64,000 bases of DNA from Candidatus Thorarchaeota archaeon (GCA_048882485.1 JBHLRP010000011.1:8015-72014); one strand, 5' to 3'. Shown: positions 13,936 to 51,171, numbered from the stretch's first letter. Notes: generated from the letters alone by a model not told the origin. A program made the numbers and translations.

Positions 13936-15243
13936 TTGAGAGAGGGTTCCATGCTGGAGAAGATTCTCACCGACAGGTTCAGAGAGATTCTGAAACTAGT
14001 CTTCACAGACATAAGCAATCAACAAGACAGGCGCGATGCGGAGGAGTTCTCAAAAGATGAGGTTCGGATCAAGCAACAGCTTCTTGATATCGTAGACCCT
14101 TATCCTCCTGACATAATTCTTGAAGAAGACTTTCTCATAGCAGCAGTAGATGGCTCTGGCACGGACAATCTGATGCTCTTGGATGATATTAGGGTGCATC
14201 TCTTGAGTACAGCTACAACTGTGCTAGACACCAACACGCGGTCTGAGAAACTCTTTGACCCAATTGGAACAAAGGTCTTGGAGGAGCGTCTTGGAGGTCA
14301 ACCACATCTTGATGTTCATTGGCATTCAGGAGTTCGAAATGATGCTCAGAGAAAGATGGCCGAAACCCTAGAATCGATTTATCCTCTCAAGGATGTGGTT
14401 GACATAATCCTGCCTTTCTTCAGAGATGATACAAAGGGTGCCATATCCTCAATCTCTGACTTCAAGGGAACTGATTATGAGAAGCATCTGCCTGAACTGA
14501 GAGAAATGGAGACCCTGATATCAAGAGCACAGATACTCACAAACCCAGTGGTCCATGATGAATTGCGAAAGGTGTCAGAGTATGCAGCGGCGAGAAACGT
14601 CTTGACTAGCAATATACGTCCAAAGTATTTGCTTCTCGATGGGGCGCTTTCAATCTTCATGCACTTTGTGAAGAAATACCCCTCAATGCCGAGTGGATTC
14701 ATGCTACGCGAGCTAGCATCTCTAGCAAGAAAAGAGGGTGTTGTACTTTGTGCCGTGAGTAAGAACCACACAATTCCCTTTGCACATCGGATTGCCAAGA
14801 TGGCACAAGAAGCCTTTGGAGATGGCGCCAAGTGGTTCTGCCAACTTCCGTGCAAAGACGATCCAGGAGGCGGTCTTCATATTACCGAAGACCGGACCTA
14901 CATCCCTCCACGATTAGCTGTTCCCTATCTCTTCAGCTTCTCCCAAGATAATCGACCCTCTCGGATTGACTTTGATAGAGTCTGGTGGCTTGAGAATGTG
15001 TTTGTACGGGGCGATCCCGTGGCCACGAGACAGAATGAGAAGGCCCTCTTCCGTGATATTGAATTTATGTCACGTGATGCAAGGTGGTATGGATACCCTG
15101 TGCCTCTGGCACTTGCCCATGAGGTTTGCAAGCTTAGCTATGAGGATTTGAGGCTTGCTAGAGAGATATGCAAAGATGTTCGACACGAAATTGGTCTGGA
15201 AACAAGAAAAACTGAGCCATTGAGAGCAGACTATAATCTATGA
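13936..15243 (+). CDS. nurA: NurA 5'-3' nuclease
   Basis: IAAVDGS, LLLDGAL, AVSK, GYPVPLALAHE motifs; first gene of the repair operon. Confidence 0.9.
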   Translation: MREGSMLEKILTDRFREILKLVFTDISNQQDRRDAEEFSKDEVRIKQQLLDIVDPYPPDIILEEDFLIAAVDGSGTDNLMLLDDIRVHLLSTATTVLDTNTRSEKLFDPIGTKVLEERLGGQPHLDVHWHSGVRNDAQRKMAETLESIYPLKDVVDIILPFFRDDTKGAISSISDFKGTDYEKHLPELREMETLISRAQILTNPVVHDELRKVSEYAAARNVLTSNIRPKYLLLDGALSIFMHFVKKYPSMPSGFMLRELASLARKEGVVLCAVSKNHTIPFAHRIAKMAQEAFGDGAKWFCQLPCKDDPGGGLHITEDRTYIPPRLAVPYLFSFSQDNRPSRIDFDRVWWLENVFVRGDPVATRQNEKALFRDIEFMSRDARWYGYPVPLALAHEVCKLSYEDLRLAREICKDVRHEIGLETRKTEPLRADYNL

Positions 15244-15260
15244 GAGTGAGGTAGTAAATC

Positions 15261-17018
15261 ATGTTGGATAGAGATAACCTCGGAGAACTCTTCGGAAAGG
15301 TAGGTATGGGCAATCAGAACATGCTTGGTATCATGGGAAACAACCGCGACATAAGCGTTGGCGAGATTTTCATGATTTATTCACAGAGAGATGGCCATGA
15401 GCGAGTCTTCTTTTTCAGAGTGCTTGGGCTGGAGAACTACCTCAGACAGGTTGATGACATGGCTAGAGTCGCTGGCACGTTGATGGTAGAGGGCGATTCG
15501 TACCTGTCCGGAATTGAAAGAAACATGCTCCTCTCGGTGGATGGAAGGATGCTGGGCTACGCTGAGGAAACAGGGGACGGTTGGAGATTCATGTCCCCTA
15601 GACGACTTCCAGACCATCTAGCGAACGTCTATCGACCAATTCCAGGCACATCGGACAAGCCTGTCAAAGAAATGCTGAGTTCACAGACAGACGGAAATGT
15701 CCGTGTTGGAGACCTACAGATTGGTGAGGCGACTCTTGATGTTCCAGTCATGATTCCCGCAAAATTCCTGCCTATGCATGTGGGAATTTTTGGATCAACA
15801 GGTGCCGGTAAGAGCAACTTGATGATGGTTCTTATCAAATCAATAATCGACTCTAATTTGGATCATCTCCACGAACATAACACCGTACATCCCAGAGTAT
15901 CCGCATTCTGTATAGATCCGCATGATGAGTTCGCGAAGGGCGTAGACAAGTATGGAATCCAGAACGTGATTGAGGCAATGGACCCAACAACAAGGACTGA
16001 TGTCATCGGCGACTTCTACTATCTTACGACTCACAAGAGAGCCACCCCCCGGGAGATTAAGCGATACGCGAGGGAGATTCGTGTTCTCTGGGAAGAGATT
16101 CGACCTCGAGATCTCTACTCAATAATGGAATTCACTCCTCAGATGTACTCATTCATTGATGCCCAATTCAATCGATACAGAGAGAACTGGGTGAGAGAGA
16201 TTCTCGCATTGGATAAGGATCCTGAAGGCACTCCCACAGGCACAGTCAATGCCGTTCAACGTAGGCTCCGTTTTCTCGAGAGATCTCCAATCTTTGTAGA
16301 AACTGGTAGTTCTATTCTTGGTGATATCTTTGAGGCAATGGAAACAGGAAGAATCATCGTTGTCAATACCAGTCTTATGAGAGACACGGAGCAGTTCCTT
16401 CTAACGACAATTGTGACAAGAACTCTGTCAGACATGAGGCGTGCCCTCAAGAGCAGCGGTAATCTCGGAGACTTCATTCGCCAAGGCGAAATGCGTCTAC
16501 CTGTGCCCTTTTTCAGAAAAGTCAAGGCGCAAGCAAAGACCTTCTATGGCGTGGGAGGAGTCGATGATGAGTCACCCGTGCATGATCCCCGCAATCTCCC
16601 AGTTATTCTCATCACTGTTGAGGAGGCACCCACGATCCTCAATCCAGAGCTAATGCGCGGCCAATCAGTATTCAAGGACATCTCGCGACAGGGACGTAAG
16701 TTCAACATGGGCCTCCTAGTGGTAAGCCAGCAAGTCAGTGTACTTGACAATGTCATCCTTAGTCAAATGAACACAGAAATCAATCTCCGGTTGGGCAATG
16801 AGCGTGAGATTCGGGCATGCATTGAGAATGCAAGTGTCAATATATCCGGATTCGAAAATGAATTCCGTGTAATGTCACGGGGTGAAGCAATTATGACGGC
16901 TTCATATAGAGAAATGCCATTGCCGGTTAAGATCCCGCTCTTTGACAAGGTCTTTGAACGTGACAGAGATAGGTACAGAGGGAAGAGCTCAAAGAAGACA
17001 GAAAAACGGGTTCTATGA
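15261..17018 (+). CDS. herA: HerA helicase/translocase ATPase
   Basis: HAS-barrel-like N-terminus, HVGIFGSTGAGKS, IDPHDEF, VEEAP, RQGRKF, VVSQQ. Confidence 0.92.
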   Translation: MLDRDNLGELFGKVGMGNQNMLGIMGNNRDISVGEIFMIYSQRDGHERVFFFRVLGLENYLRQVDDMARVAGTLMVEGDSYLSGIERNMLLSVDGRMLGYAEETGDGWRFMSPRRLPDHLANVYRPIPGTSDKPVKEMLSSQTDGNVRVGDLQIGEATLDVPVMIPAKFLPMHVGIFGSTGAGKSNLMMVLIKSIIDSNLDHLHEHNTVHPRVSAFCIDPHDEFAKGVDKYGIQNVIEAMDPTTRTDVIGDFYYLTTHKRATPREIKRYAREIRVLWEEIRPRDLYSIMEFTPQMYSFIDAQFNRYRENWVREILALDKDPEGTPTGTVNAVQRRLRFLERSPIFVETGSSILGDIFEAMETGRIIVVNTSLMRDTEQFLLTTIVTRTLSDMRRALKSSGNLGDFIRQGEMRLPVPFFRKVKAQAKTFYGVGGVDDESPVHDPRNLPVILITVEEAPTILNPELMRGQSVFKDISRQGRKFNMGLLVVSQQVSVLDNVILSQMNTEINLRLGNEREIRACIENASVNISGFENEFRVMSRGEAIMTASYREMPLPVKIPLFDKVFERDRDRYRGKSSKKTEKRVL

Positions 17019-17028
17019 GGAGTGAAAG

Positions 17029-18336
17029 ATGGCTGTACGCATTGCGCACATCTCCGATACACATCTTGGCGCCCGACCCCGTCAAGGTGTTAGACACAAT
17101 GTCTGGGGAGAGGAGATGCGGAGCCAGCTACTTGAGAATGATTTCTACGAACGATTTGCTGAGATATTTGAACGCATTTCTCTAACAGAGCCGTCCGTAG
17201 ACTTGGTCATTCACTCCGGAGACCTCTACAATTCTCCTTGGGAGAACAACCCATCACAACCTCCAGTTGTTGCGCAAGAAACTGCCATACGAGTTCTGAA
17301 GGATTTCATAAACAGAACCAACATTCCGGTCCTAATCATCGAAGGAAACCATGGGCTTTATCGTTCATTAGATGTATCGCTTCTCGATTCTCTCAAAATG
17401 GCAGTTCCTGGGCTTGATGTAGCAACTCAGGTTGATTTGAAACGAGCATTTCGTTTATGGGAGCCGCTCAGGTTCTCTTACGAGAAGTTGGATGTCTACT
17501 GCTTTCCATTCATTGACTATGCCGTTCTTAATTCCATGGCACTTCTGAGCGACTTCAACGATTGGATTTCCACAAAGCAAATTCCCAGTCCAAAAAGAGT
17601 ATCAATTGGTGTTGCTCATGGTATGGAAATTGATAGGTCTCTCCACAAACCCATCTTAGAGATGGGCTATGACTACATTGCCTTGGGTCACGACCATCAT
17701 ATGCACAAGCACGCGGAGAACGCATGGTATGCAGGGGCTCCTGAACGCTGGAGATATGATGAGATTCGCCATGAGAAGGGCTACCTCCTAGTAGATTTGG
17801 AACTTGACACGCCTCCAAAGATTACTCCTGTTCATCTCGAATTCATAAGATCAGTGCAAAGTGACAAGCTCGAAATTGAACTCGACGATACCGAAGAAAC
17901 CATCATCGGAAAAACTGAAGAATGGTTCGAGAAGAATGGGTTGAAGAGATCATGGGAGCCATCAACAGCTGGGCGTGTAAGGCTACTCTTTGAGGGTATG
18001 TCCCCTCGAGTTAGCGGGTTTGAGCTTACAATGGCGTTAGAGGCCCTCAGAGCTAGGGTCCTTGCTTCTGAATCAGAATATAACATAGCTCAGCTTGTAT
18101 GGAACATTCGTCAGACAGAAGCAGAGCACAGTCCTTCAGCATATCCCGAAATTGAATCTGAGTTCCTCATAGAGAATCCTGAAGGCGACTTTCGCGCTTA
18201 TTTGGAAACCCTTGAAATCGATGAGAGATACGACGAAAGGAAATTGACGAAGATTGCTGTTGAGGCTTTGAGAATCTCAGTCACATGTCCAGACGAGAGT
18301 CTGAGATTGGAGCATCTTACGGAGGGTGAGGAATGA
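17029..18336 (+). CDS. mre11: Mre11/SbcD nuclease
   Basis: HISDTHLG, HSGDLY, IEGNH, VAHG, ALGHDH, YAGAPE phosphoesterase motifs. Confidence 0.92.
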   Translation: MAVRIAHISDTHLGARPRQGVRHNVWGEEMRSQLLENDFYERFAEIFERISLTEPSVDLVIHSGDLYNSPWENNPSQPPVVAQETAIRVLKDFINRTNIPVLIIEGNHGLYRSLDVSLLDSLKMAVPGLDVATQVDLKRAFRLWEPLRFSYEKLDVYCFPFIDYAVLNSMALLSDFNDWISTKQIPSPKRVSIGVAHGMEIDRSLHKPILEMGYDYIALGHDHHMHKHAENAWYAGAPERWRYDEIRHEKGYLLVDLELDTPPKITPVHLEFIRSVQSDKLEIELDDTEETIIGKTEEWFEKNGLKRSWEPSTAGRVRLLFEGMSPRVSGFELTMALEALRARVLASESEYNIAQLVWNIRQTEAEHSPSAYPEIESEFLIENPEGDFRAYLETLEIDERYDERKLTKIAVEALRISVTCPDESLRLEHLTEGEE

Positions 18337-20417
18337 GACTCATACGCTTGGAGCTTCAGAACTTCAAGCCATTCAGAAAGCTCACTCTTCCCGCTGAGGA
18401 CGAGGAATTGCCAAAAGGTCTCATTATCGTTCGAGGCCCTAACTCGACAGGAAAGTCTTCAATCTTCGAAGCTATCCTCTGGGCTCTTTGGGGTTCAGGA
18501 GCAGTTGAGCCAGCGAATGATGAGTTGATTAATTTTGCCTCTTCATTCTGTGATGTAAGGCTGGAGTTTGATATTGCAGGCACCAAGTATGAGATTAATC
18601 GTTCTTACGACCCCGCGAAGGGCATGTCCGTCGTTCTTTCAGAGAAAAAGAATGGCAATTGGAAGCGAATCGCAGACAAGAACCAGACAGTGAGTAGAAG
18701 CATGGAGGATATACTCAACCTAGAACATCAACAGGCACTTCAAACACTTCTTGTCCGCCAAGGCGAAGTTGCTCTAATTGCCAACGCCACTCCCACCGTT
18801 CTTAGAGAATTGCTTGAGAAGGTCTATAATATCGAGCTATTGGGTGAGATGAAGAAGCAGCTCGCGAATCTAGAGGCGAACCTAAAGACCAACATTGATG
18901 TTCTGGAGAAGGAGTACAGGCCTCCTGAACATATTCGTGAACAGATTGCCAATGTCAAGAAGCGTATTGTACATGATGAACGTGAGCTCAAGAAGATTAC
19001 AAAAGAGAGTCGCAAAGCAGAGGAGCTCCTAAAAACCCTGCCAGACCCCAAGGACCTGAAAAGAGCCGCTGAATTACTTGAAGATATCAGAATAAAGGAG
19101 GGAGAACACAAAAGGGTCCTAAAGTTGAGAGAGAGAGAGCTACAAATGGCTGGGATTGCTGATTCAAATCCGGAGATCATTCGTGCAAGATTGGAATTCT
19201 TGAAGAAGGAAAGCGCAAAACTGGATTTAGACAGGGATACAATAATGGAGAAGTCGCATCGCATAGAGAGAGAGATTGGAGAGCATAAGGCCCTGCTAGG
19301 AGATGTCGAAGAGAAGATTACAGGTCTGACAAAGGTGGATGAAGGCGGTCTATGTCCGATATGTCAAAAACCTCTTTCTGCGCACGAATGCAATAGAATT
19401 GTTTCTGAGTATAAGTCTACAGCAGAGAGCCATAAGATGAGAATTGATGCTCTATCCCAGGAACGAGATGCAATCCCTGATGAATTGAAGGAAATAGATG
19501 ATAGACTTAGAACCATTCCTCGTGCAATTGATGCGGCATCCCGCCTAGCAGATCAGCAGAGAGAAGCTGATGCTATCGCCTCTGAGGCAGGGGCGTTGGC
19601 AAACACGCTCGGTTCAGTTCTCAGAAAGATGAATGTGGAAAGCGTTAAGATGCTACTCAAGAAGCATAAGGTCAATGACATTTTGCATCTGCAGAGCAAT
19701 ATAATCAGGCTCAAAGAAACGCTCATTGCGAACAAGACAAGCATTGAGTCTGCATCAAAGAGAATAGAGCGGGGCAAAGAAGAGGTCAAAGAGCTTGAAG
19801 AAAAGCAGGTAAAGATGAAGGAGTTGGGTGCCCAAATCCAGTCAATCGAGGAACTCAAAGAACATACCACATATGTCCGGAGGAAGCTTGTTAGCGGATT
19901 TATAGCAGACTACATTTTTCAGAAACGACTGATTGGAATCATCAGAAAAGCGACCAATGTGTATGTAGATGCGTTCACCAATGGTCAATACACATCGATT
20001 GATCTAGAGCCAACTCCAGCAAAGGGGCGTGCAGGACCCGGCCTTCTTCTCAGGATATGGGATGAACGTGACAAGGCAAAGAAGAGAAGCTCCCAGCTTA
20101 GCTTTGGTGACAGAACTGCCATTAGTCTAGGTCTTCGACTTGGTATCAGCAGGACAATGAGCAGCATTAGACCTTTGAAGGAAAGCCCTGCTGTGGCTCC
20201 GCGTGTCCGAAGTGTGCTTCTTGATGAACCGCTTGGTGGTCTGGATAGGGGCCGGAGAATATCTGTTGTCAAGAACCTAGTGAATGATCAGAGCTTCGAA
20301 CAAATCTTTCTCATAACTCATACTGATGTTGGAGGATGGGAGGGTGTTCCGGTCATAGAAGTGAGCAAGAGTGGTTCTGGCAGTGATGCTTTACTGGTCC
20401 TCTCTCCTGATGTATGA
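18333..20417 (+). CDS. rad50: Rad50/SbcC SMC-family ATPase (short, 694 aa)
   Basis: GPNSTGKSS Walker A, VRQGE Q-loop, CPIC Zn hook, LSFGD signature, LLDEP..GLD, LITH. Confidence 0.92.
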   Translation: MRLIRLELQNFKPFRKLTLPAEDEELPKGLIIVRGPNSTGKSSIFEAILWALWGSGAVEPANDELINFASSFCDVRLEFDIAGTKYEINRSYDPAKGMSVVLSEKKNGNWKRIADKNQTVSRSMEDILNLEHQQALQTLLVRQGEVALIANATPTVLRELLEKVYNIELLGEMKKQLANLEANLKTNIDVLEKEYRPPEHIREQIANVKKRIVHDERELKKITKESRKAEELLKTLPDPKDLKRAAELLEDIRIKEGEHKRVLKLRERELQMAGIADSNPEIIRARLEFLKKESAKLDLDRDTIMEKSHRIEREIGEHKALLGDVEEKITGLTKVDEGGLCPICQKPLSAHECNRIVSEYKSTAESHKMRIDALSQERDAIPDELKEIDDRLRTIPRAIDAASRLADQQREADAIASEAGALANTLGSVLRKMNVESVKMLLKKHKVNDILHLQSNIIRLKETLIANKTSIESASKRIERGKEEVKELEEKQVKMKELGAQIQSIEELKEHTTYVRRKLVSGFIADYIFQKRLIGIIRKATNVYVDAFTNGQYTSIDLEPTPAKGRAGPGLLLRIWDERDKAKKRSSQLSFGDRTAISLGLRLGISRTMSSIRPLKESPAVAPRVRSVLLDEPLGGLDRGRRISVVKNLVNDQSFEQIFLITHTDVGGWEGVPVIEVSKSGSGSDALLVLSPDV

Positions 20418-29834: not shown

Positions 29835-30680
29835 TTATTGAGGCACACCACACCATGGACATACCTTTGTGCCAGCTCTGAATGTTCTGCCACAAGAGAA
29901 GCAAAATGTTCTATCTTCTCTACTCTCTGAACCATCGCTGAATGGACTAAGTTCTCCTTGAGAAAACAGTGAACCAACGCTTTTGTCAGGAGAACGAATG
30001 CGGCATGTTGATCCCTCAGTTTCGCAAGCATCTCCAAAGAGATTGCTCAGATCAGCATAGGAGTCGGACCTTTCTGGCTCCCCATAGGATGGTGCAGTTT
30101 CAATTGGCGTAGATGTTTCATGCCGACTCCACGAACTCTCTTCTCGCTCCGGATAGCTTCTTGGCTCCAAGGATCGATCTATTGTGTCGAAATCTCTGCG
30201 ATATTCGTCCCCACCATACCCTCTATCCACAGCAGGTCTGTTTGCCAGGGTTGAACCATAGCCATCATAGTCACTGCCAGAGCCTCTGTGACCTCGTGCA
30301 GACTCAATGAATCTGATGTGTGAATCGCTTTTCAATCGCTCGTATTCGTCTGGTGTAAGCCCAAGCATCTCGAGTGCTCTGTCTCTCTCTGCACATCTCT
30401 TTGACATCGGACAGCAGAAAGAAAGACTTGCATGACACAAAGACGCCATTGCTCTGTCTTGCCGCGATTTGAAGATAGGAGTTATCCTGCGCCTACCTAG
30501 AACGAGTGAGTCTCCACTCGCACGAAGTTCTGCATAACCACTCTGTGCAAGCGCCTCTACTATCTCTCTGGCTGGATAAGCTCTCCCCTCGATCACAACA
30601 TGTCCTTCAGTCTTATCTAATCGCACTGGGCGTTCAGCGTTTCTGCCGTCTTCACGGCTAGGATATCTCGTGATAGCCAC
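29835..30680 (-). CDS. Hypothetical protein: Cys-rich domain, S/G/Y/R disordered region, C-terminal zinc ribbon
   Basis: LCHASLSFCCPMSKRCAERDRALEMLGLTPDEY; C-terminal FCFSCG......VCPWCG. Confidence 0.7.
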   Translation of the reverse strand: MAITRYPSREDGRNAERPVRLDKTEGHVVIEGRAYPAREIVEALAQSGYAELRASGDSLVLGRRRITPIFKSRQDRAMASLCHASLSFCCPMSKRCAERDRALEMLGLTPDEYERLKSDSHIRFIESARGHRGSGSDYDGYGSTLANRPAVDRGYGGDEYRRDFDTIDRSLEPRSYPEREESSWSRHETSTPIETAPSYGEPERSDSYADLSNLFGDACETEGSTCRIRSPDKSVGSLFSQGELSPFSDGSESREDRTFCFSCGRTFRAGTKVCPWCGVPQ

Positions 30681-39006: not shown

Positions 39007-39780
39007 GTGAAGGTTTCTGCGATGCAAGAACGTCTCCAATCTGAACTCTTCGCCTCAATAGCAACCCTTGACCAGCTGAAGAAGATGTTCGACATGGGCA
39101 TAGTCGACATCAGATCCTATCAGAGGGAGTCTGAAGCACTGGCCAGTGAGGTAAAGGCGAATATTGCAGACCTGAAGCGCATCGGTCTAGATTTCGGCAC
39201 CTTCATTCAGACTGAACGTGTTGCAGAACGATTCCCTGATGCTATTATGCTGCTTGACATTTCCCGACGTGAAAATAGATACCGTGGCGACGGCATGACA
39301 ATGGATGAATATTATGACCACATTGGCCTCGCGATTCTTGATGTGGCAACTGTACATGCATCCAAGGGACTCATGGGACTGGCTGAACTGATTGTTGAAG
39401 TTGTGAAGCGCATGCCTGAGCTAAAGGCAATAAGCTATAGTGATGTAATTGAGGCTGTCAACCGTGTAGCTGAGCACGGGCTAATCCCTGGAATTCGGAC
39501 TCTGCGCGGTGGCGTGAAAGTTGTCGAGCTCCGCCCGCTTGAGCTCCGGAGGGACCAAGCGGATGTGGTGAACCTCGCTGCATCAAAAGGCTATGTTTCC
39601 GTTGAAGAAGTAATGATGCTTATGAAATGGTCTGAGGATCATGCAAGGCAAGTCCTATCCAGTCTAGTAGACGCCGGTATGGCAGTGGCAGACATTCGAT
39701 TCTCAACCGGGGGCAGATACTACTTCCCAGGTCTACGTGCTAGGGACTCCAGCGATGGTGGACCTATCTCACGGCGATAG
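39007..39780 (+). CDS. ESCRT-II Vps22/36 (EAP30)-like protein with N-terminal Vps28-core-like segment
   Basis: aa 101-243 tandem winged helices (EYYDHIGLAILDV, PLELRRDQADVVNLAASKGYVSV, KWSEDHARQVL, YYFPGL); aa 8-85 SELFASIATLDQLKKMFDMGIVDIRSY; likely start 39022. Confidence 0.88.
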   Translation: MKVSAMQERLQSELFASIATLDQLKKMFDMGIVDIRSYQRESEALASEVKANIADLKRIGLDFGTFIQTERVAERFPDAIMLLDISRRENRYRGDGMTMDEYYDHIGLAILDVATVHASKGLMGLAELIVEVVKRMPELKAISYSDVIEAVNRVAEHGLIPGIRTLRGGVKVVELRPLELRRDQADVVNLAASKGYVSVEEVMMLMKWSEDHARQVLSSLVDAGMAVADIRFSTGGRYYFPGLRARDSSDGGPISRR

Positions 39781-39781
39781 G

Positions 39782-40504
39782 TTAAACGACAATCTTGATT
39801 GCCCCTTTCTTCTTATCCACCCAATCTGCAAGTCCTTTCTCTACCATTATTAGGAGTATCTGATGAAGGTCCTTCTCTGGCAGTCTAGCGAAGCTATACT
39901 CCTCTTCCTGAATGACTATTGATTTGACATCTAGTCTAACCTTTCCTGACTTCAAAGCCCATTCATAGATAATGTCCGCCCATTCCTCAAGGAATCTCCA
40001 GTAGACTCGCAATTGTCTTCGGTTTCTATCCAACCATTCTGCAATTTCTTTCTCAACAAGCACATTGCCAATTAACTTGAAAGAATCAATCTTATTCGTA
40101 ATATCGTTGAAGGGGGGCTCCTTGATGAAGGCGGTCACGGATAGGACATGAACATCATGAGCTTCCATCCATCTAAGAACGAAATCAGACCACTCTTCAG
40201 CCCACATGTTTCTGTCTTCTTCTCGAGGAGGTATACCATACATCCACTCCGTCTGTGTAAGATCTCCCCAGGGAGGCATGATGACAACTTCTTCCGTTTC
40301 GACTAAAACCTCCTCGGCTTCTACAGTTTCTTCGACAGCAGTGTCTGTTTCCACTTGCGTAATAACAACTTCTGGCTTGTGGATTTCCTCTGCTTCTTCA
40401 ATCTCTTCGACAGGAATTACTTCATCTACAGTGGGTTCTGCTGTTGAGGTTTCTGACGTAGTCTCTTCCTTCTCCTTCTCCCTACGTCTTTCTCTGACAC
40501 CCAC
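39782..40504 (-). CDS. vps25: ESCRT-II Vps25-like protein with acidic N-terminal extension
   Basis: WMYGIPP..WAEEWSDFVLRW, PPF, VYWRFLEEWADIIYEWA, GLADWV tandem winged helices; context beside Vps22 and Vps4. Confidence 0.85.
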   Translation of the reverse strand: MGVRERRREKEKEETTSETSTAEPTVDEVIPVEEIEEAEEIHKPEVVITQVETDTAVEETVEAEEVLVETEEVVIMPPWGDLTQTEWMYGIPPREEDRNMWAEEWSDFVLRWMEAHDVHVLSVTAFIKEPPFNDITNKIDSFKLIGNVLVEKEIAEWLDRNRRQLRVYWRFLEEWADIIYEWALKSGKVRLDVKSIVIQEEEYSFARLPEKDLHQILLIMVEKGLADWVDKKKGAIKIVV

Positions 40505-40507
40505 TCC

Positions 40508-41731
40508 CTAGGAACCCTCCGCCCAATCGATATACCTCTTAACATCCTCTGGAGAAGTTGCTGGCCTTATGTTCTCAATCGCCTGCAGGAAATCCTCTCT
40601 GGATACAGGTCGAATATTAATGATCTTTTCTTCATCATCCATTCTTCCAGTACGCTGTAGGTCCCTTATTGGCTCCATGGCTGCTTCTCTACAGACGACA
40701 CTTATATCGCGTCCACTATAGCCCTCACTGAGGTCCGCAAGCTCCTCATAGTTGACTTCGGGAGCGACTTCTATCTCTTCCATGTGGATCTCGAAGATTC
40801 GCTTTCTAGCTGGCTTATCTGGGAGGGGCACGTGAATCTTCTTCTCAAACCTTGACCGAAGAGCGAAATCCAATTCCCATGGTAGATTTGTTGCACCAAT
40901 AACTGTGACCCTATCTTCAAGATCACTGGCGAGTCCCTGCAGCTCTGTTAGAAGCTGAGTCTTGAGTCTTCTTTCTCCTCCAACATCATCACCTGACCTA
41001 GAAACTCCGACAGAATCCAGCTCGTCCATGAAGACTATGGCAGGCTGATTTCGTCTGGCCAACGTGAAGAGATTCATGACTAGTTTCTCAGACTCACCAA
41101 GCCACTTGCTCACAATGTTGCCTGCTGAAACGTTGAAGAAAGTGGCATTCACCTCGGATGCCACTGCTTTTGCGATCAATGTCTTTCCACATCCCGCAGG
41201 ACCGTAGAACAATATTCCTCTCCAAGGCTGACGAGACTTCCCTTTGAAGAGCTCTGGATGCTTCATTGGCGCAATAATCGCATCATGAATTGCCTGCTTG
41301 GCATTCTCCAAGCCTGCAACGTCGCTCATCTTGACCTTAGGTTTCTCAGTGATGATTGTGTCAGCTATCATCTCCTGCAGTCTTCGGGTATCTTCATCAA
41401 CCTCAGCTTCAGAAGCTGTTGCTTCCGTAGACTTTTCCGCTGTTGGCTCTGCTTCAGCAGGAGAAAACACTGGCGGCGTTGTCAAACCATCTGGAGGGCC
41501 TCTCGCCTTCTTCTTTATTCCAGAGATATAGCGGACTCTGTCAACACACTCTTGTGCCCTGTCAAGGTAATGTTTCTGGACTGAGGGCAGAGATGCTGCA
41601 TTTGACAGTTTGATCAGAATTTTGCTTGCTTTCAGATAGTACTGAGCAGCTTCCTTCTTCATTCCTCTCTGGTCAAGCTCTATGGCCTTGTCAAGTAGGT
41701 TTTTCAAGCCCTGGTCTAATCTATCAGACAT
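40508..41731 (-). CDS. vps4: Vps4 AAA+ ATPase (MIT plus AAA)
   Basis: MIT (KAIELDQRGMKKEAAQYY), DVAGLE, PWRGILFYGPAGCGKT, SKWLGESEK, FMDELD, RRLKTQLL, GATNLPWELD, GYSGRDI. Confidence 0.95.
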   Translation of the reverse strand: MSDRLDQGLKNLLDKAIELDQRGMKKEAAQYYLKASKILIKLSNAASLPSVQKHYLDRAQECVDRVRYISGIKKKARGPPDGLTTPPVFSPAEAEPTAEKSTEATASEAEVDEDTRRLQEMIADTIITEKPKVKMSDVAGLENAKQAIHDAIIAPMKHPELFKGKSRQPWRGILFYGPAGCGKTLIAKAVASEVNATFFNVSAGNIVSKWLGESEKLVMNLFTLARRNQPAIVFMDELDSVGVSRSGDDVGGERRLKTQLLTELQGLASDLEDRVTVIGATNLPWELDFALRSRFEKKIHVPLPDKPARKRIFEIHMEEIEVAPEVNYEELADLSEGYSGRDISVVCREAAMEPIRDLQRTGRMDDEEKIINIRPVSREDFLQAIENIRPATSPEDVKRYIDWAEGS

Positions 41732-41835
41732 CCCTGTTCAGGTCTAACTGGAACCCGTGATGATAATAAGTTCTGTGTGACTATCACTATATGCCGCTAA
41801 TACTGGGATTGATAGATACTGTACACCAGCTCTAC

Positions 41836-41847
41836 GAAGGTTTAAAC
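41836..41847 (+). promoter_or_regulatory. Candidate BRE/TATA box for the ESCRT-III gene
   Basis: GAAGGTTTAAAC about 45 nt upstream of the start codon, in the divergent vps4/ESCRT-III intergenic region. Confidence 0.35.
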
Positions 41848-41891
41848 GCTGAACATTCATCCTAGTGTTGTAGGGCGAAATCCCTAGCTAA

Positions 41892-42515
41892 GTGGTGAGA
41901 CTTTTGGATTCACTCAGAAAGGCATTCAGATGGGGTCGGAAAAAACCCGACATTGGAGAGGTTTCCAGCCAACTCAGAATTCTAACGAAACAACTTGCCC
42001 GTGAGAGAAACAAGTTGGAGAAGGAAGAACGTGATACAAGGGCGCGAGCTATCAAGGCTCGCCAAGCTGGACAAATGGATGCCTTCAAGACCTATGCAAC
42101 TGAGATGGTACGTTTCAGAAGATATGCGCTCTCTACAGACAAGGCACGGCTTCAGATTCTCAAAATCCTTACCCATCTCAATCGTGCACAGACATCGGCA
42201 AGAACAGGCCGCGCACTCGAGGAGGTGGCAAAGATCCTCGGAATGCTTGGCGATACAAGTGACACCCGCAGGCTTGTTGAGAATGTTGATGAGATTACTC
42301 GTCGACTAGACGAATTCGAGATTGAGAGCGCTATATCTGCAGAGGCGCTTGATGCAAGCATGGAAGTCAGTTCAGATGATTTAGCTGCAGCTATGCAGGA
42401 GATAGATGTGGAAGTCGGATTAGCTGATGCAGCATCCGTGGCAGCTAGGCCTGCGTCTGAATCGGAAACTCTTGAGAAAGACATTAAGGATTTGGAGCGT
42501 GAACTGGGCATCTAG
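41892..42515 (+). CDS. ESCRT-III subunit, Vps2/24/46 (CHMP1-3) class
   Basis: Basic helical hairpin QLARERNKLEKEE..KARQAGQMDAFKTYATEMVR, acidic C-half, terminal MIM1-like LEKDIKDLEREL; divergent from vps4. Confidence 0.9.
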   Translation: MVRLLDSLRKAFRWGRKKPDIGEVSSQLRILTKQLARERNKLEKEERDTRARAIKARQAGQMDAFKTYATEMVRFRRYALSTDKARLQILKILTHLNRAQTSARTGRALEEVAKILGMLGDTSDTRRLVENVDEITRRLDEFEIESAISAEALDASMEVSSDDLAAAMQEIDVEVGLADAASVAARPASESETLEKDIKDLERELGI

Positions 42516-44087
42516 TTACCATCTGTACCCATGACCATGCCTTGTTGCACGCTCGATTTCACGATTGGTCTGATATGAGTCGCGCATGAGACCCCGATAT
42601 CTTCTGATGAAGTCTTCAGGGACCAAGTGTCCGTTTCTCATTAGATGTAGAGTTTCGTTAATCGCATTTTGAATCTCTAGTGCGTTTCTCCTGAGATATT
42701 CCATATCAGATTCGGCAGTTGTATACGAAGGGTCTCGATAGTACCCTCGTCCATAGTCCGTGCGTCCAAGAGTGTCCTCAAGATGCTCCTTGAACGCTTT
42801 AGGATGGTCATAAGGATTCTCAATTCGCCCATATCTTGATGGAGCTGGTCGTGGCTGATAGAATTCAGTTCTCCTAGGATATCCTCGCTGTACTTCTGAG
42901 GCATTTCCAGTTGCGGAGAGCAATGAGTATACCAATCCCTCTATCTTGAGTCTGACATCGCTAATGTTGAGGTTCTTCTGCTCGATTTTTCGAACTCTCT
43001 GAAGATCACTCTGCATATACTTCTCAAACTTCCTCGCAATCTCAAAATAATCTGGCATGACCTTTTTTGTTTCCTCGCTGCAGGAGATCTTCAAATCGCC
43101 CTGTTTTAGTCGCAATACAATTCTCTTGCGAAGTCGACCATCTTCTTCGATATCTTTCAAATACATCAGTGGAAACTGGAATACAATCTCAGTCTTCTTG
43201 CGTAATCTTCCTGTCTCAGCTACTAGGAATAGCCTCTTGTTTGTGATGAAGAGTGTGCCGTAGGCTTTGTCATTTTTCAAGAAGTTGCTACCTACAACCT
43301 TGATGTCCGGCAGAGCAGCTACAGGCAATTCATTAACAGATAGCTCGCCATGTTCATAGAACTCTGCGAATTCCTGCCTATGATAGCTCAGACCATCAAG
43401 TTGCGCCATTACTTCCTGCAGTCTTGGTCTGACCTCATGAAGGCTATCATCGACATGTTGCTTGTAGTACGTGCCGAGCTCTGATACTCTATTTCTGACA
43501 CCTTCAATGAAGGGGAACTGAGCAGGAGTCCACTTGCTATAGTCAATGAGGCCTTTTGTTTCAGCAGCGATTTGCTTTGCTACTATCTCAGCTTGATTTC
43601 CAATTCGGCTCTTGATTGCAGGCATCTCATCCTGCACTGACTCGACTTTTTCCTCTATCCAATGATAATGTAGGAAGTTAGCCATCCTGAGAGATACAAG
43701 CGTTCTTTTGGCATTATCAAGCTTGGTCATGAACTCTCGCAATTTGGTATGGCCGTACTGAATGCTCATGATGGCTTGCCTAAGCTCTTGAGCCAGAGTT
43801 CGTCGTTTCTCTTCCAATAGGATTATGCGACTTGAGTGGCATCGAGGACAAATGTCAGCTGTGCGTCTACCTGTGTCAATGTTCTCAGATTCACACTCAG
43901 GACAGCTTTCTATCTCTTCGCCCTGTAACGTTGTCAATGTTGCGTGACACTCACGGCACATGTGATACTCTTTGGTTCTTGAGTCAAGGCACTCTGAGCA
44001 TAGCACAGTCCCACAATCTTCACACAAGTGACTGGCTCTGTTTCTTTGACAGACAGGACAGCGATGAGATGAGGAGTCTAGTGTCAA
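42516..44087 (-). CDS. B-box/Zn-finger, coiled-coil, PH/GRAM-like, Vps23-steadiness-box-like protein
   Basis: CPVC..H.CEDC..LCSEC plus three CxxC pairs (aa 10-83); helical aa 90-240; GTLFITNKRLFLV (aa 277-289); NAINETLHLMRNGHLVPEDFIRRYRGLMRDSYQ (aa 474-506). Confidence 0.7.
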   Translation of the reverse strand: MTLDSSSHRCPVCQRNRASHLCEDCGTVLCSECLDSRTKEYHMCRECHATLTTLQGEEIESCPECESENIDTGRRTADICPRCHSSRIILLEEKRRTLAQELRQAIMSIQYGHTKLREFMTKLDNAKRTLVSLRMANFLHYHWIEEKVESVQDEMPAIKSRIGNQAEIVAKQIAAETKGLIDYSKWTPAQFPFIEGVRNRVSELGTYYKQHVDDSLHEVRPRLQEVMAQLDGLSYHRQEFAEFYEHGELSVNELPVAALPDIKVVGSNFLKNDKAYGTLFITNKRLFLVAETGRLRKKTEIVFQFPLMYLKDIEEDGRLRKRIVLRLKQGDLKISCSEETKKVMPDYFEIARKFEKYMQSDLQRVRKIEQKNLNISDVRLKIEGLVYSLLSATGNASEVQRGYPRRTEFYQPRPAPSRYGRIENPYDHPKAFKEHLEDTLGRTDYGRGYYRDPSYTTAESDMEYLRRNALEIQNAINETLHLMRNGHLVPEDFIRRYRGLMRDSYQTNREIERATRHGHGYRW

Positions 44088-49220: not shown

Positions 49221-50192
49221 ATGGAGATGATTGCACTGGCCAGCAAACACGCGAAGACCAAGAAATCCGGAGAAAGCAAAGCTGGTGCGGCTAGATACGT
49301 CTGTTCTACGTGCACTTCTGATGAAGTCTATATTGATAGTGCGAGGGGAGAGGTAACCTGTTCTAATTGTGGACTAGTTCTTTCTGATAGATCCATTGAT
49401 ATGGGTCCAGAATGGCGTGCATTCACTGCAGATGAGCAGAATGCGCGTCAACGCGTTGGCGGACCAACAGACTGGAGTAAGTTCGATCAAGGGCTCACCA
49501 CGATAATTGGTCGCCAGAACGTGGACGCTTCAGGAAGGAAATTGACTTCTACCAGACGAGCTCAAATACATAGACTACGCAAATGGCAAATACGCACCAA
49601 AGTGCACTCTTCTGACAAACGTAACCTTGCGGTTGCTATGACAGAACTTCATAGAATCAGCTCTCAGTTGAGCATCCCCTATTCGATAAGAGAGACCTCA
49701 GCAGTGATTTACCGAAAAGCTCTGCGTAAGCGTCTTACGAGAGGGCGTACGATCTTGGGGATGATTGCAGCCTCATTATACCTTGCATGCAGGGTGCACC
49801 AAGTTCCTAGACCTCTGGAGGAAGTCTGTGATCAGATACACATCACTAGAAAGGAACTCAGTCTGTGTGTCAGACTGATTCTAAGGTATCTGAATCTCAA
49901 GATTCCTCACAGCAATCCTGTGGAGTTTGTGCATCGATTTGGAACTGAGTTGGGACTTGAAGGCGACGCCAAGAAGAAAGCTATAGACATTCTTGAGATG
50001 GCCCGAGAGGAACGACTCACAATTGGCAAAGATCCAAAGGGAATGGCAGCTGCAGCGATTTACGTTGCAAGTATTCTCACGGGTCAACGCCGGACCCAAC
50101 TTGAAATCGCTCGCACTGCGCGAGTGACTGAAGTAACGGTTCGAAACAGATACAAGGAAATGGTCGAGAAGCTGGGGATTTCCACAACCTAA
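49221..50192 (+). CDS. tfb: Transcription initiation factor IIB
   Basis: Zn ribbon CSTC..CSNCGLV, IDMGPEWRAF B-reader, RLRKWQ, two cyclin repeats, VTEVTVRNRYKE. Confidence 0.97.
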   Translation: MEMIALASKHAKTKKSGESKAGAARYVCSTCTSDEVYIDSARGEVTCSNCGLVLSDRSIDMGPEWRAFTADEQNARQRVGGPTDWSKFDQGLTTIIGRQNVDASGRKLTSTRRAQIHRLRKWQIRTKVHSSDKRNLAVAMTELHRISSQLSIPYSIRETSAVIYRKALRKRLTRGRTILGMIAASLYLACRVHQVPRPLEEVCDQIHITRKELSLCVRLILRYLNLKIPHSNPVEFVHRFGTELGLEGDAKKKAIDILEMAREERLTIGKDPKGMAAAAIYVASILTGQRRTQLEIARTARVTEVTVRNRYKEMVEKLGISTT

Positions 50193-50337: not shown

Positions 50338-51171
50338 ATGTCCAACAAGAGATCGGTTCAAGGCATATGGCTGATTGAGCGTGGTAGCGGCAGAAATCTC
50401 GTTAGTAGAGCCTATGCCAATATCGAAATCGACATGGACTTGATTGCTCCTTTTCTTTCGGCAACTCACACCTTCATAGACAAAGCAGCACAAGAGAGTC
50501 TCAAGACTATTGATACAGACACAAATCGCTACATCTGGGAGGCGAATGATTATCTTCTCTTTGTAATGGTTGTTTCCAAAAGCGCTCGAGTCAGCCATAT
50601 GCGCTTCATCCTTGAATATGCTATGAACGAATTCATGAAGAATCAGATACCCCCTGACAAAGACATTGAAATGATGCTGAAACAATGGCATGGACGACCT
50701 GGCCAGTTTAGGAAATTCGGGACTTTCATTGATGAACTCGTAAGTCAATACGAGGTTACAGACGAAAGCCTTGTAGCCGGAAAATCGATGGACTGCCTTG
50801 CTGTCTACAGTCATCTTTTCAAAGCTCTCATGAAGGTCAAGACTGACTCTGATACACGGAAGAAGCTTGTGAGGCGAATCAGAAAGTCGATAAAGCCTAT
50901 CAAGGAATTCTACAGTTTTCTCGATGTGGTTGCTGTCGATTCTGGTGGTATTGATGTCCTGAGTATTGATGTTAATATCGCTCCCTATAAGGAACTTAGA
51001 GTCGCATTGGAAGAGATATTGAAAATGCTGAGTCAAGTAGTTCAGGAAACCGTTTCCAAAAGAGTCTACCAGACAATGTTATTCAAGCACGCAATGCCAT
51101 ATGTGAAGTCAGACGTAGAGCGTCTTCAAACATATGCAATCCTCGATGATGTGATTCGACATCTATTCTAG
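50338..51171 (+). CDS. Longin-like domain protein with helical C-terminal region
   Basis: VQGIWLIERGSGRNLVSR..DLIAPFLSATHTF..LLFVMVV follows the beta-beta-alpha-beta-beta-beta-alpha longin pattern common in Asgard archaea. Confidence 0.7.
   Translation: MSNKRSVQGIWLIERGSGRNLVSRAYANIEIDMDLIAPFLSATHTFIDKAAQESLKTIDTDTNRYIWEANDYLLFVMVVSKSARVSHMRFILEYAMNEFMKNQIPPDKDIEMMLKQWHGRPGQFRKFGTFIDELVSQYEVTDESLVAGKSMDCLAVYSHLFKALMKVKTDSDTRKKLVRRIRKSIKPIKEFYSFLDVVAVDSGGIDVLSIDVNIAPYKELRVALEEILKMLSQVVQETVSKRVYQTMLFKHAMPYVKSDVERLQTYAILDDVIRHLF

Follow-up and report, generated by a model that had tools for sequence, protein, structure and literature searches.

We detected a five-gene ESCRT block in a 64,000-nucleotide stretch of Candidatus Thorarchaeota DNA (GCA_048882485.1 JBHLRP010000011.1:8015-72014; hereafter the window), which is the conserved, standard Thorarchaeial ESCRT cluster and the ortholog of ThorAB25_08990-09030. 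We propose, at a probability of roughly 70%, that it derives by reduction from the ubiquitin-ESCRT cluster ancestral to Asgard archaea, and that in it a steadiness box (SB) would dock on a Vps28 N-terminal domain (Vps28-N) to launch ESCRT-II, ESCRT-III and Vps4. The locus is already known and the present analysis contributes modest extra detail. Its unusual domain fusions are genuine, but were in print in 2022-2024; what we add to the published parts list is a specific, model-supported two-domain interaction with predicted interface residues. The genes and domains are as follows (aa, amino acids).

39022..39780, plus strand: Vps28N-Vps22 fusion gene, 252 aa from ATG 39022; ortholog of ThorAB25_09030
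39022..39258, plus strand: Vps28 N-terminal domain, aa 1-79; hairpin H2-24/H30-53 and three short helices
39298..39741, plus strand: tandem winged-helix core of Vps22, aa 93-240, beyond a flexible linker (aa 81-89)
39782..40504, minus strand: Vps25 (ESCRT-II), 240 aa, with an acidic N-terminal extension
40508..41731, minus strand: Vps4 AAA+ ATPase, 407 aa; MIT, Walker A GPAGCGKT, Walker B MDELD, Vps4_C
41892..42515, plus strand: ESCRT-IIIA (Snf7 family), 207 aa; ortholog of ThorAB25_09000
42516..44087, minus strand: Znr_CC_PH_SB, 523 aa; asCOG cog.011556; ortholog of ThorAB25_08990 'SB'
42534..42716, minus strand: steadiness-box (Vps23-type) helical hairpin, aa 458-518
42717..42911, minus strand: variable linker, probably disordered, aa 393-457; pLDDT ~40-60, column conservation 0.31
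43017..43325, minus strand: PH-fold domain (GRAM/GLUE/bPH-like), aa 255-357
43368..43817, minus strand: helical coiled-coil stalk, aa 91-240; long helices H91-135, H142-176 and H188-240, high pLDDT
43818..44060, minus strand: zinc region, aa 10-90; B-box-like plus double zinc ribbon, five CxxC pairs

All five open reading frames are found along 39007-44087, on strands +,-,-,+,-, where a reading made earlier from the sequence alone (the sequence-only reading) had placed them, and their families are supported by Pfam. The frame of the Vps22 fusion (39007-39780, plus strand) is open from GTG 39007, and ATG 39022, the start site in most homologs, is most likely its start; it ends in a TAG at 39780, next to the minus-strand TAA of vps25 from 39782. 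The TAG of the ESCRT-III gene at 42515 abuts in the same way the minus-strand TAA from 42516 of the Znr_CC_PH_SB gene, which has a TTG start with GGAGG 8 nt upstream. The abutting stops that the sequence-only reading had pointed out are thus confirmed from the stop codons, and both are tail-to-tail junctions. Considering these junctions, the divergent vps4 and ESCRT-III genes (160 bp apart) and the mixed strands, we conclude that the five genes do not form a single operon.

Among the three inner genes, Vps25 matches Pfam ESCRT-II (E 7e-16) and, by inspection, ThorAB25_09020; Vps4 matches AAA (5e-39), MIT (3e-5) and Vps4_C (1e-6), its motifs being read off the translation; ESCRT-IIIA matches Snf7 (E 2e-11) and, by inspection, the ESCRT3A entry of Hatano et al. 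The ESCRT-IIIB gene sits on another contig (C2) of the same genome, so the locus is not the self-contained system that had been supposed. The block of SB, ESCRT3A, Vps4, Vps25 and Vps22 genes recurs equally in the relatives fetched, the nearest homologs being mainly labelled Thorarchaeota. The expected synteny of the flanking genes is also borne out, both end genes lying on one contig in 70/81 genomes and convergently in 69, these genomes being incomplete MAGs (the own genome is 90.5% complete).

The Vps22 fusion matches Pfam EAP30 (E 2e-14), and its structure model (pLDDT 80.9) is closest in a structural search to human ESCRT-II (2zme_A, Z 14.9, rmsd 5.4 over 176). Its winged-helix core shares 38% identity over 144 aa with one stand-alone Asgard Vps22 (E 7e-32) and has a column conservation of 0.88. 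The Vps28-N-like hairpin ahead of it, as proposed from the sequence, is well founded: the profile of the N-terminus matches that of 22 Asgard Vps28 N-termini at 99.4% (hhalign, E 3.5e-21), its top PDB sequence matches are yeast Vps28 (2f6m_B, E 0.03), and its model superimposes on a headpiece chain (6vme_U, Z 11.4, rmsd 2.1 over 79). Pfam VPS28 matches 39/47 family members at E<=1 (best 2e-4), versus 6/47 for SHOCT, which rules out a generic SHOCT or coiled coil. The Vps28-C four-helix bundle is absent from the fusion, since the EAP30 winged helices occupy aa 93-240 and leave no space for it in a 252-aa protein. This fusion is the sole match of the Asgard Vps28-N profile in its own genome.

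At the other end, Znr_CC_PH_SB (model pLDDT 84.5) has Zn, coiled-coil and PH domains where canonical Vps23 carries UEV. Pfam DZR, B-box and bPH_3 matches are weak at full length; the isolated zinc region matches DZR (2.6e-6) and zf-B_box (5e-5), its cysteines being invariant or almost so among homologs. The PH-fold domain, when isolated, reaches bPH_3 at E 0.004, resembles the MTMR2 PH-GRAM domain (1lw3_A, Z 13.0, rmsd 2.6 over 107) and the EAP45 GLUE domain (2dx5_A, Z 10.4), and carries two conserved basic loops (GRLRKK, GRLRKR) and invariant G293, R296 and G317. The steadiness-box-like hairpin also stands up to scrutiny, by sequence and by structure: the best full-length PDB sequence matches are the yeast Vps23 SB (2f66_A, E 0.005), and its model matches 2p22_A (Z 9.5). 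Individual scores are modest: Pfam Vps23_core matches 33/49 SB-family members at E<=1 (best 8e-5), one non-Thorarchaeial ortholog reaches the curated cut-off, and the own 523-aa copy alone has no match. Vps23_core nevertheless leads, and a generic SHOCT or coiled coil is excluded here too. The 523-aa protein is the only match of the SB profile in its own genome.

Whole-genome searches place no ubiquitin, E2, UEV, E1-like, JAB or RING_2 match in the window, and no Vps28 match besides the Vps28-N part of the fusion, in agreement with the sequence-only reading; RING gave no match anywhere in the genome, in a search run without a positive control. In the own genome nothing was found with UEV, UQ_con or a profile of 17 Asgard UEV-Vps23 sequences; ubiquitin, UQ_con and UEV matches at E ~0.6 there are chance (two contain stop codons). 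Ubiquitin (PF00240) has a match in 0/87 Thorarchaeia, against 153/170 genomes from the rest of the phylum, and one Asgard UEV-Vps23 query, without a positive control, found nothing in the 87 Thorarchaeia. Ubiquitin and UEV-Vps23 thus went undetected in genome and class, in line with the lack of ubiquitin that the sequence-only reading attributed to Thorarchaeia, and Lu et al. (bioRxiv 10.1101/2023.07.25.550441) have likewise described Loki- and Thorarchaeia without UEV-Vps23.

The origin of this state can be read from ubiquitin-bearing relatives. Locus L036 has the ancestral layout: E1, E2 and ubiquitin, then UEV-Vps23 > Vps28 > Vps28C-like > Vps22 >< Vps25 < Vps4, and ESCRT-IIIA > IIIB >< Znr_CC_PH_SB. 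Znr_CC_PH_SB is ancestral, being present in 84/87 Thorarchaeia and, outside them, in 98/170 Asgard genomes, of which 95 have ubiquitin. Its same position in ubiquitin-bearing clusters rules out a Thorarchaeial invention in place of UEV-Vps23, and with it the suggestion that this protein replaced ubiquitin sensing. In 21/22 fetched non-Thorarchaeial loci, Vps22 is directly preceded by a co-oriented Vps28, a count biased by the choice of these loci for a Vps28-N match. The fusion is full-length in 77/87 Thorarchaeia, and a fused form occurs in 0/79 non-Thorarchaeial genomes. Within this sample, loss of ubiquitin and UEV-Vps23, together with the joining of vps28 to its neighbour vps22, is specific to Thorarchaeia, and the fusion, as we strongly infer, arose when Vps28-C and the N-terminal helices of Vps22 were deleted, making the link from ESCRT-I to ESCRT-II covalent. 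The genomic evidence thus points to a derived state, by loss and fusion of adjacent genes, and not to a primitive pre-ubiquitin stage.

Beyond the published record, the remaining idea is a model-supported direct pairing of the two end proteins of the cluster. The predicted complex of Vps28-N and the SB hairpin scored 0.71 versus 0.15 for the best control; the pass mark is reached by 58/80 solved pairs and 2/110 mismatched pairs, but also by close cousins of a true partner. Contacts agree in >=97% and partner pLDDT is >=82. The proposed pair passes against these controls, but the predictor may simply reproduce known Vps23-Vps28 headpieces, which have already been solved (2f6m, 2p22, 6vme). The predicted interface includes I494, Y497 and M501 of SB and A11, T15 and Q18 of Vps28-N. 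In both domains, conservation is higher at the interface than in the remainder (0.83 vs 0.69, p ~0.01; 0.78 vs 0.59, p ~0.003), a signal that weakens to p ~0.05 within the first hairpin alone; buried or homo-oligomer surfaces could also be its source. Znr_CC_PH_SB coexists with UEV-Vps23 in other lineages, and its SB may therefore have a different partner.

We hypothesize that Znr_CC_PH_SB would attach to the membrane by the basic loops of its PH domain, cargo or membrane being putatively sensed through the Zn and PH domains, and that its flexibly tethered SB would dock on Vps28-N as Vps23 does in the eukaryotic headpiece, perhaps with two SB per Vps28-N, as in Odinarchaeum. After loss of UEV-Vps23, this protein would be the only detectable remaining SB partner. 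The Vps22 winged helices would then bring in Vps25, which would recruit ESCRT-IIIA and the off-locus ESCRT-IIIB, and Vps4 would take the polymer apart. That this route forms a tag-free, two-protein ESCRT-I/II entry, in which the PH/zinc protein marks the membrane and SB binding to the Vps22 fusion by itself launches Vps25, ESCRT-III and Vps4, we hold tentatively, at somewhat short of even odds. If true, other Asgard lineages would possess in their Znr_CC_PH_SB arm a second entry point, ancestral and independent of ubiquitin.

The two hairpins could instead stay unpaired in cells, Vps28-N homodimerising the Vps22 fusion in the stead of the lost Vps22 N-terminal helices, and SB self-associating like CdvA into a membrane scaffold that recruits ESCRT-III directly. 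Hatano et al. (2022, PMC9192718) report self-interaction of Thorarchaeial Vps22 in yeast two-hybrid tests and possible ESCRT-III contacts bypassing Vps25, and SB resembles CdvA in our comparison (9s9g_A, Z 9.8 over aa 455-523) and in Makarova et al. (2024, PMC10936438). However, Hatano et al. also suggest that in Loki and Thor Vps28 may be contacted by the freestanding SB, and the only Vps28-N among their Thor proteins is the one within 'Vps22'; together with a heteropair model that beats its controls and has conserved residues in its predicted interface, this renders the arrangement unlikely. A similarly improbable variant keeps complete Vps28 function through a Vps28-C/BAR protein elsewhere, ESCRT-I being split, not minimal, and this locus only one part of it. 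A 411-aa protein (G000:C10:52094-53326), conserved in 81/87 Thorarchaeia, shows a weak PF03997 match (21.6 bits, below cut-off) and a weak BAR match, and BAR-Vps28 fusions of Thorarchaeia have been described (Eme 2023; Makarova 2024). However, nothing significant turns up in the own genome with a profile built from 22 Asgard Vps28-C domains, and this profile fails to align with the 411-aa family (probability 0.5%), which has look-alikes in Bathyarchaeota and Methanobacteriota and a domain order unlike KXH73277.1; a clean split of Vps28, with N on Vps22 and C on this protein, is thus not confirmed.

The proposed independence from ubiquitin stands in so far as ubiquitin was not found; independence from any tag does not follow, as missing ubiquitin leaves room for another one. 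Six ThiS/SAMP-like, two ThiF/E1-like and one JAB gene persist in the genome, and a SAMP/ThiS/Urm1-type tag might be read by the zinc ribbons or the PH domain, which resembles ubiquitin-binding EAP45 GLUE (also 2hth_B), and the yeast Vps36 zinc finger binds ubiquitin. These genes all lie outside the window, though, are common in prokaryotes without ESCRT (search controls), and many other PH folds match at least as well as GLUE; we regard such a ubiquitin-less but tag-dependent system as the least likely of these alternatives. Thorarchaeia are an Asgard lineage keeping ESCRT-II, ESCRT-III and Vps4 without ubiquitin, and can therefore serve as a natural experiment on ESCRT targeting in its absence.

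The reduced-cluster reading can be set against known systems. The AB_25 cluster of Hatano et al. comprises, as here, five genes in equal order, ThorAB25_08990 (SB), 09000 (ESCRT3A), 09010 (Vps4), 09020 (Vps25) and 09030 (Vps22), with ESCRT3B (07240) elsewhere and in a lineage noted as without ubiquitin; it comes from a different genome, and 09030 is named simply Vps22. These proteins were used in yeast two-hybrid tests, and the text consulted contains no description of a Vps28-N fusion or of Zn/PH domains in the Thor SB protein. Makarova et al. described the N-terminal Vps28 SB on Thorarchaeial Vps22 (HHpred 99%; KXH75178.1, 1-70, VPS28) and proposed that Znr_CC_PH_SB belongs to ESCRT-I, associates with the membrane and is ancestral in Asgard. 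Their cog.011556 (zinc ribbons, coiled coil, PH, SB) and cog.002769 (SB-fused Vps22) have the architectures found here, and the module, which the sequence-only reading took to be cryptic, had thus been reported, its 523-aa ortholog having been labelled 'SB' and tested by Hatano et al. The SB fusion is stated by Makarova et al. for Asgard Vps22 generally, whereas the counts in our sample confine the Vps28-N fusion to Thorarchaeia, and the section consulted holds no proposal or model of direct pairing between the fusion and Znr_CC_PH_SB. A literature search for ubiquitin-independent ESCRT in Thorarchaea gave no paper. The canonical Asgard cluster (Odinarchaeum, Heimdallarchaeia; L035, L036; Lu et al.) shares order and orientation from vps22 to Znr_CC_PH_SB, but retains E1, E2, RING, ubiquitin, UEV-Vps23, full Vps28 and both ESCRT-III genes. 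The SB and Vps28-N hairpins are homologous to those of the eukaryotic ESCRT-I headpiece (Vps23/Vps28/Vps37; 2f6m, 2p22, 6vme), and Vps22 winged helices and a PH/GLUE-like fold are shared with eukaryotic ESCRT-II (2zme). In contrast to both eukaryotic complexes, the Thorarchaeial cluster is without UEV, Vps37, Mvb12, Vps28-C and Vps36, links ESCRT-I to ESCRT-II covalently, and combines its PH and Zn domains with SB in one protein instead of having them on Vps36.

The sequence-only reading described five open reading frames (ORFs), all of which are present in the window as follows:

39007-39780, plus strand: Vps22 fusion, a Vps28-N hairpin joined to Vps22 winged helices (Pfam EAP30 above cut-off)
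39782-40504, minus strand: Vps25 (Pfam ESCRT-II above cut-off)
40508-41731, minus strand: Vps4 (Pfam MIT-AAA-Vps4_C above cut-off)
41892-42515, plus strand: ESCRT-III (Pfam Snf7 above cut-off)
42516-44087, minus strand: 523-aa Zn/PH/SB protein, SB being the steadiness box (weak zinc and PH matches only)

The stops abut, as had been stated, and these junctions are tail-to-tail; since the vps4 and ESCRT-III genes are moreover divergent, the block requires at least three transcripts. The nearest relatives mostly carry the label Thorarchaeota. Most homologs of the Vps22 fusion start at the methionine equivalent to ATG 39022, and in one genome (G024:C13:104460-105196) the gene is split over three overlapping frames, probably by sequencing frameshifts.

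The Vps28-N-like hairpin proposed for the first gene is borne out by sequence profiles, Pfam and structure matches. In the model of the fusion (pLDDT 80.9), an N-terminal hairpin and three short helices are connected through a flexible linker (aa 81-89) to a pair of winged helices, and the C-terminal part resembles ESCRT-II Vps22 (2zme_A, Z 14.9). Residues 1-81 resemble a human ESCRT-I headpiece chain (6vme_U, Z 11.4, rmsd 2.1 over 79) and yeast Vps28-N (2f6m_D, Z 9.8); Z values for such helical domains are not decisive by themselves, and the sequence evidence is concordant. Yeast Vps28 provided the top four PDB matches to the domain profile, Pfam VPS28 matched the domain in 39/47 family members, and profile alignment with 22 Asgard Vps28 N-termini gave 99.4% (E 3.5e-21).

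The 523-aa protein (model pLDDT 84.5 overall) is organized as follows, according to its structure model:

aa 10-90: zinc region
aa 91-240: long helical stalk
aa 255-357: PH fold
aa 393-457: linker, disordered and variable (also from column conservation)
aa 458-518: C-terminal hairpin (SB)

The nearest folds to the PH domain, in which two basic loops are conserved, are PH-GRAM and GLUE. The assignment of the hairpin as steadiness-box-like also held: the yeast Vps23 steadiness box gives its best full-length PDB matches (E 0.005), Vps23_core is its most frequent Pfam match (33/49 members), and an ortholog in another Asgard family passes the curated Pfam cut-off.

Both end genes are widespread in the Thorarchaeia, the 523-aa family being present in 84/87 genomes and the full-length fusion in 77/87. 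They are syntenic across relatives, lying on one contig in 70 of the 81 genomes carrying both, convergent in 69 of these 70, and spaced 2.6-3.2 kb apart in nearly all. Ubiquitin (PF00240) was detected in 0/87 Thorarchaeia genomes, compared with 153/170 genomes from the rest of the phylum, which served as positive control. Within the source genome (90.5% complete), no credible E2, UEV or UEV-Vps23 was found, and the fused N domain was the sole match to Asgard Vps28 profiles.

The 523-aa family extends beyond Thorarchaeia, occurring in 98/170 other Asgard genomes, a count including a few weak or partial matches, and 95 of these encode ubiquitin. The complete arrangement is seen in one such locus (L036), where E1, E2, ubiquitin and RING genes precede a same-strand series of UEV-Vps23, Vps28, a small gene resembling Vps28-C, and Vps22; after these, oriented as in the window, come Vps25, Vps4, a pair of ESCRT-III genes and the Zn/PH/SB gene. 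In 21/22 non-Thorarchaeial loci the gene immediately upstream of Vps22, and on its strand, is Vps28, a proportion biased upward by selection on a Vps28-N match, and a single ORF combining the two domains was found in 0/79 non-Thorarchaeial genomes. On the simplest reading, a deletion probably brought Vps28-N and the Vps22 winged helices into one gene, and the ubiquitin genes and UEV-Vps23 were lost as well. In the sole sister-family genome (G001), the fusion is present and ESCRT-IIIB, the second ESCRT-III gene, still adjoins the Zn/PH/SB gene within the cluster (L041); in the source genome it lies outside the cluster (G000:C2:49659-50156; L011:1342-2115, +) and is an ortholog of ThorAB25_07240.

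Variants were observed in other Asgard families. The small stand-alone Vps28-C-like gene (~100 aa) occurs between vps28 and vps22 in several non-Thorarchaeial clusters (L036:5944-6240, +; also L053, L059 and L062), in line with Makarova 2024 (PMC10936438). Families f17 and f20 (genomes 66-91% complete), with ubiquitin in 0/5 and 1/7 and a Vps22 match in 0/5 and 0/7, may lack ESCRT-II altogether. In family f21 (L067 region, G126:C95:10462-10839; G134:C138), a ~605-aa frame with a Znr_CC_PH_SB-like N terminus and a Vps22-like winged-helix match suggests a further ESCRT-I/II fusion, perhaps cog.002441.

The two hairpins had been proposed to pair as a minimal headpiece. A complex model of fusion aa 1-79 and SB aa 455-520 reached a score of 0.71 (best control 0.15), with contacts agreeing in at least 97% between runs and partner pLDDT of at least 82; the pairing mark was reached by 58/80 solved complexes and 2/110 mismatched pairs. 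Similar complexes have been solved (2f6m, 2p22, 6vme), so that the score possibly reflects memory and speaks for likeness, not binding. Within each domain, conservation is higher at the predicted interface than elsewhere, which is supportive of pairing yet not independent of burial, and profile searches of the source genome detected no other SB or Vps28-N partner. Alternatively, each hairpin might self-associate, as the self-interaction of Thor Vps22 in yeast two-hybrid (Y2H) assays and the structural likeness of SB to CdvA would favour. The system might also use a SAMP-type tag; the source genome encodes two E1-like, one JAB and six ThiS/SAMP-like genes. Another gene might carry the Vps28-C function, for which a conserved, single-copy 411-aa helical protein (G000:C10:52094-53326; L007:1357-2589, +; 81/87 Thorarchaeia) speaks through weak VPS28 and BAR matches, although it fails to match the Asgard Vps28-C profile; it has look-alikes in Bathyarchaeota and Methanobacteriota and is possibly the published BAR-Vps28 fusion.

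Most likely, the PH domain would anchor the Zn/PH/SB protein to the membrane, by analogy, the tethered steadiness box would dock onto the Vps28-N head of the fusion, as modelled, and the Vps22 winged helices would connect to Vps25, ESCRT-IIIB and IIIA, and Vps4. We assign this whole chain a probability of about 0.7. The identities of the genes, their homologies and synteny, and the lack of detectable ubiquitin are established here; the pairing is modelled, and membrane binding, stoichiometry and cargo we infer by analogy.

Other genes were noted in passing. A 767-aa protein (G000:C2, L014:2517-4820, +), with a similar second match of ~780 aa in most Thorarchaeia, carries a Vps22-like tandem winged helix at its C terminus, with WFPGL as the last residues, in addition to a coiled coil and an Ig-like/CarboxypepD_reg domain; the genes placed head to head with it encode a small Zn-finger protein, an unknown protein of 377 aa and an N-terminally extended small GTPase (L014:40-966). 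In the window, a 277-aa protein with a weak longin match (50338-51171, +; Fuz_longin_1, E 0.003) adjoins a TFIIB-like gene (49221-50192). The HerA, Mre11-like phosphoesterase and Rad50-like genes (13936-20417, +) are the usual archaeal DNA-break repair block, and the preceding 435-aa ORF, without Pfam match, may be NurA. A 281-aa protein (29835-30680, -) with a Cys-rich N-terminal part, low-complexity middle and C-terminal zinc ribbon matched no firm Pfam family.

The sequence-only interpretation is in part supported, and the ESCRT system that it describes is already known and published. Hatano et al. 2022 (PMC9192718) tabulate and Y2H-test the orthologs ThorAB25_08990 ('SB'), 09000, 09010, 09020 and 09030, describe Thorarchaeota as lacking ubiquitin, and suggest that freestanding SB may interact with Vps28. 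Makarova et al. 2024 (PMC10936438) report Vps22 fused to an SB, match Thorarchaeial KXH75178.1 aa 1-70 to VPS28 at 99%, and define Znr_CC_PH_SB as a likely ESCRT-I component that is ancestral and associated with the membrane. The lack of UEV-Vps23 in Thorarchaeia (Lu et al., 10.1101/2023.07.25.550441) and a Thorarchaeial Vps5-BAR/Vps28 fusion (Eme et al. 2023, PMC10307638) have also been reported. The explicit model of one hairpin docking on the other, and the proposed origin of the fusion by deletion, which we did not find stated in the accessible papers, are refinements of this published system.
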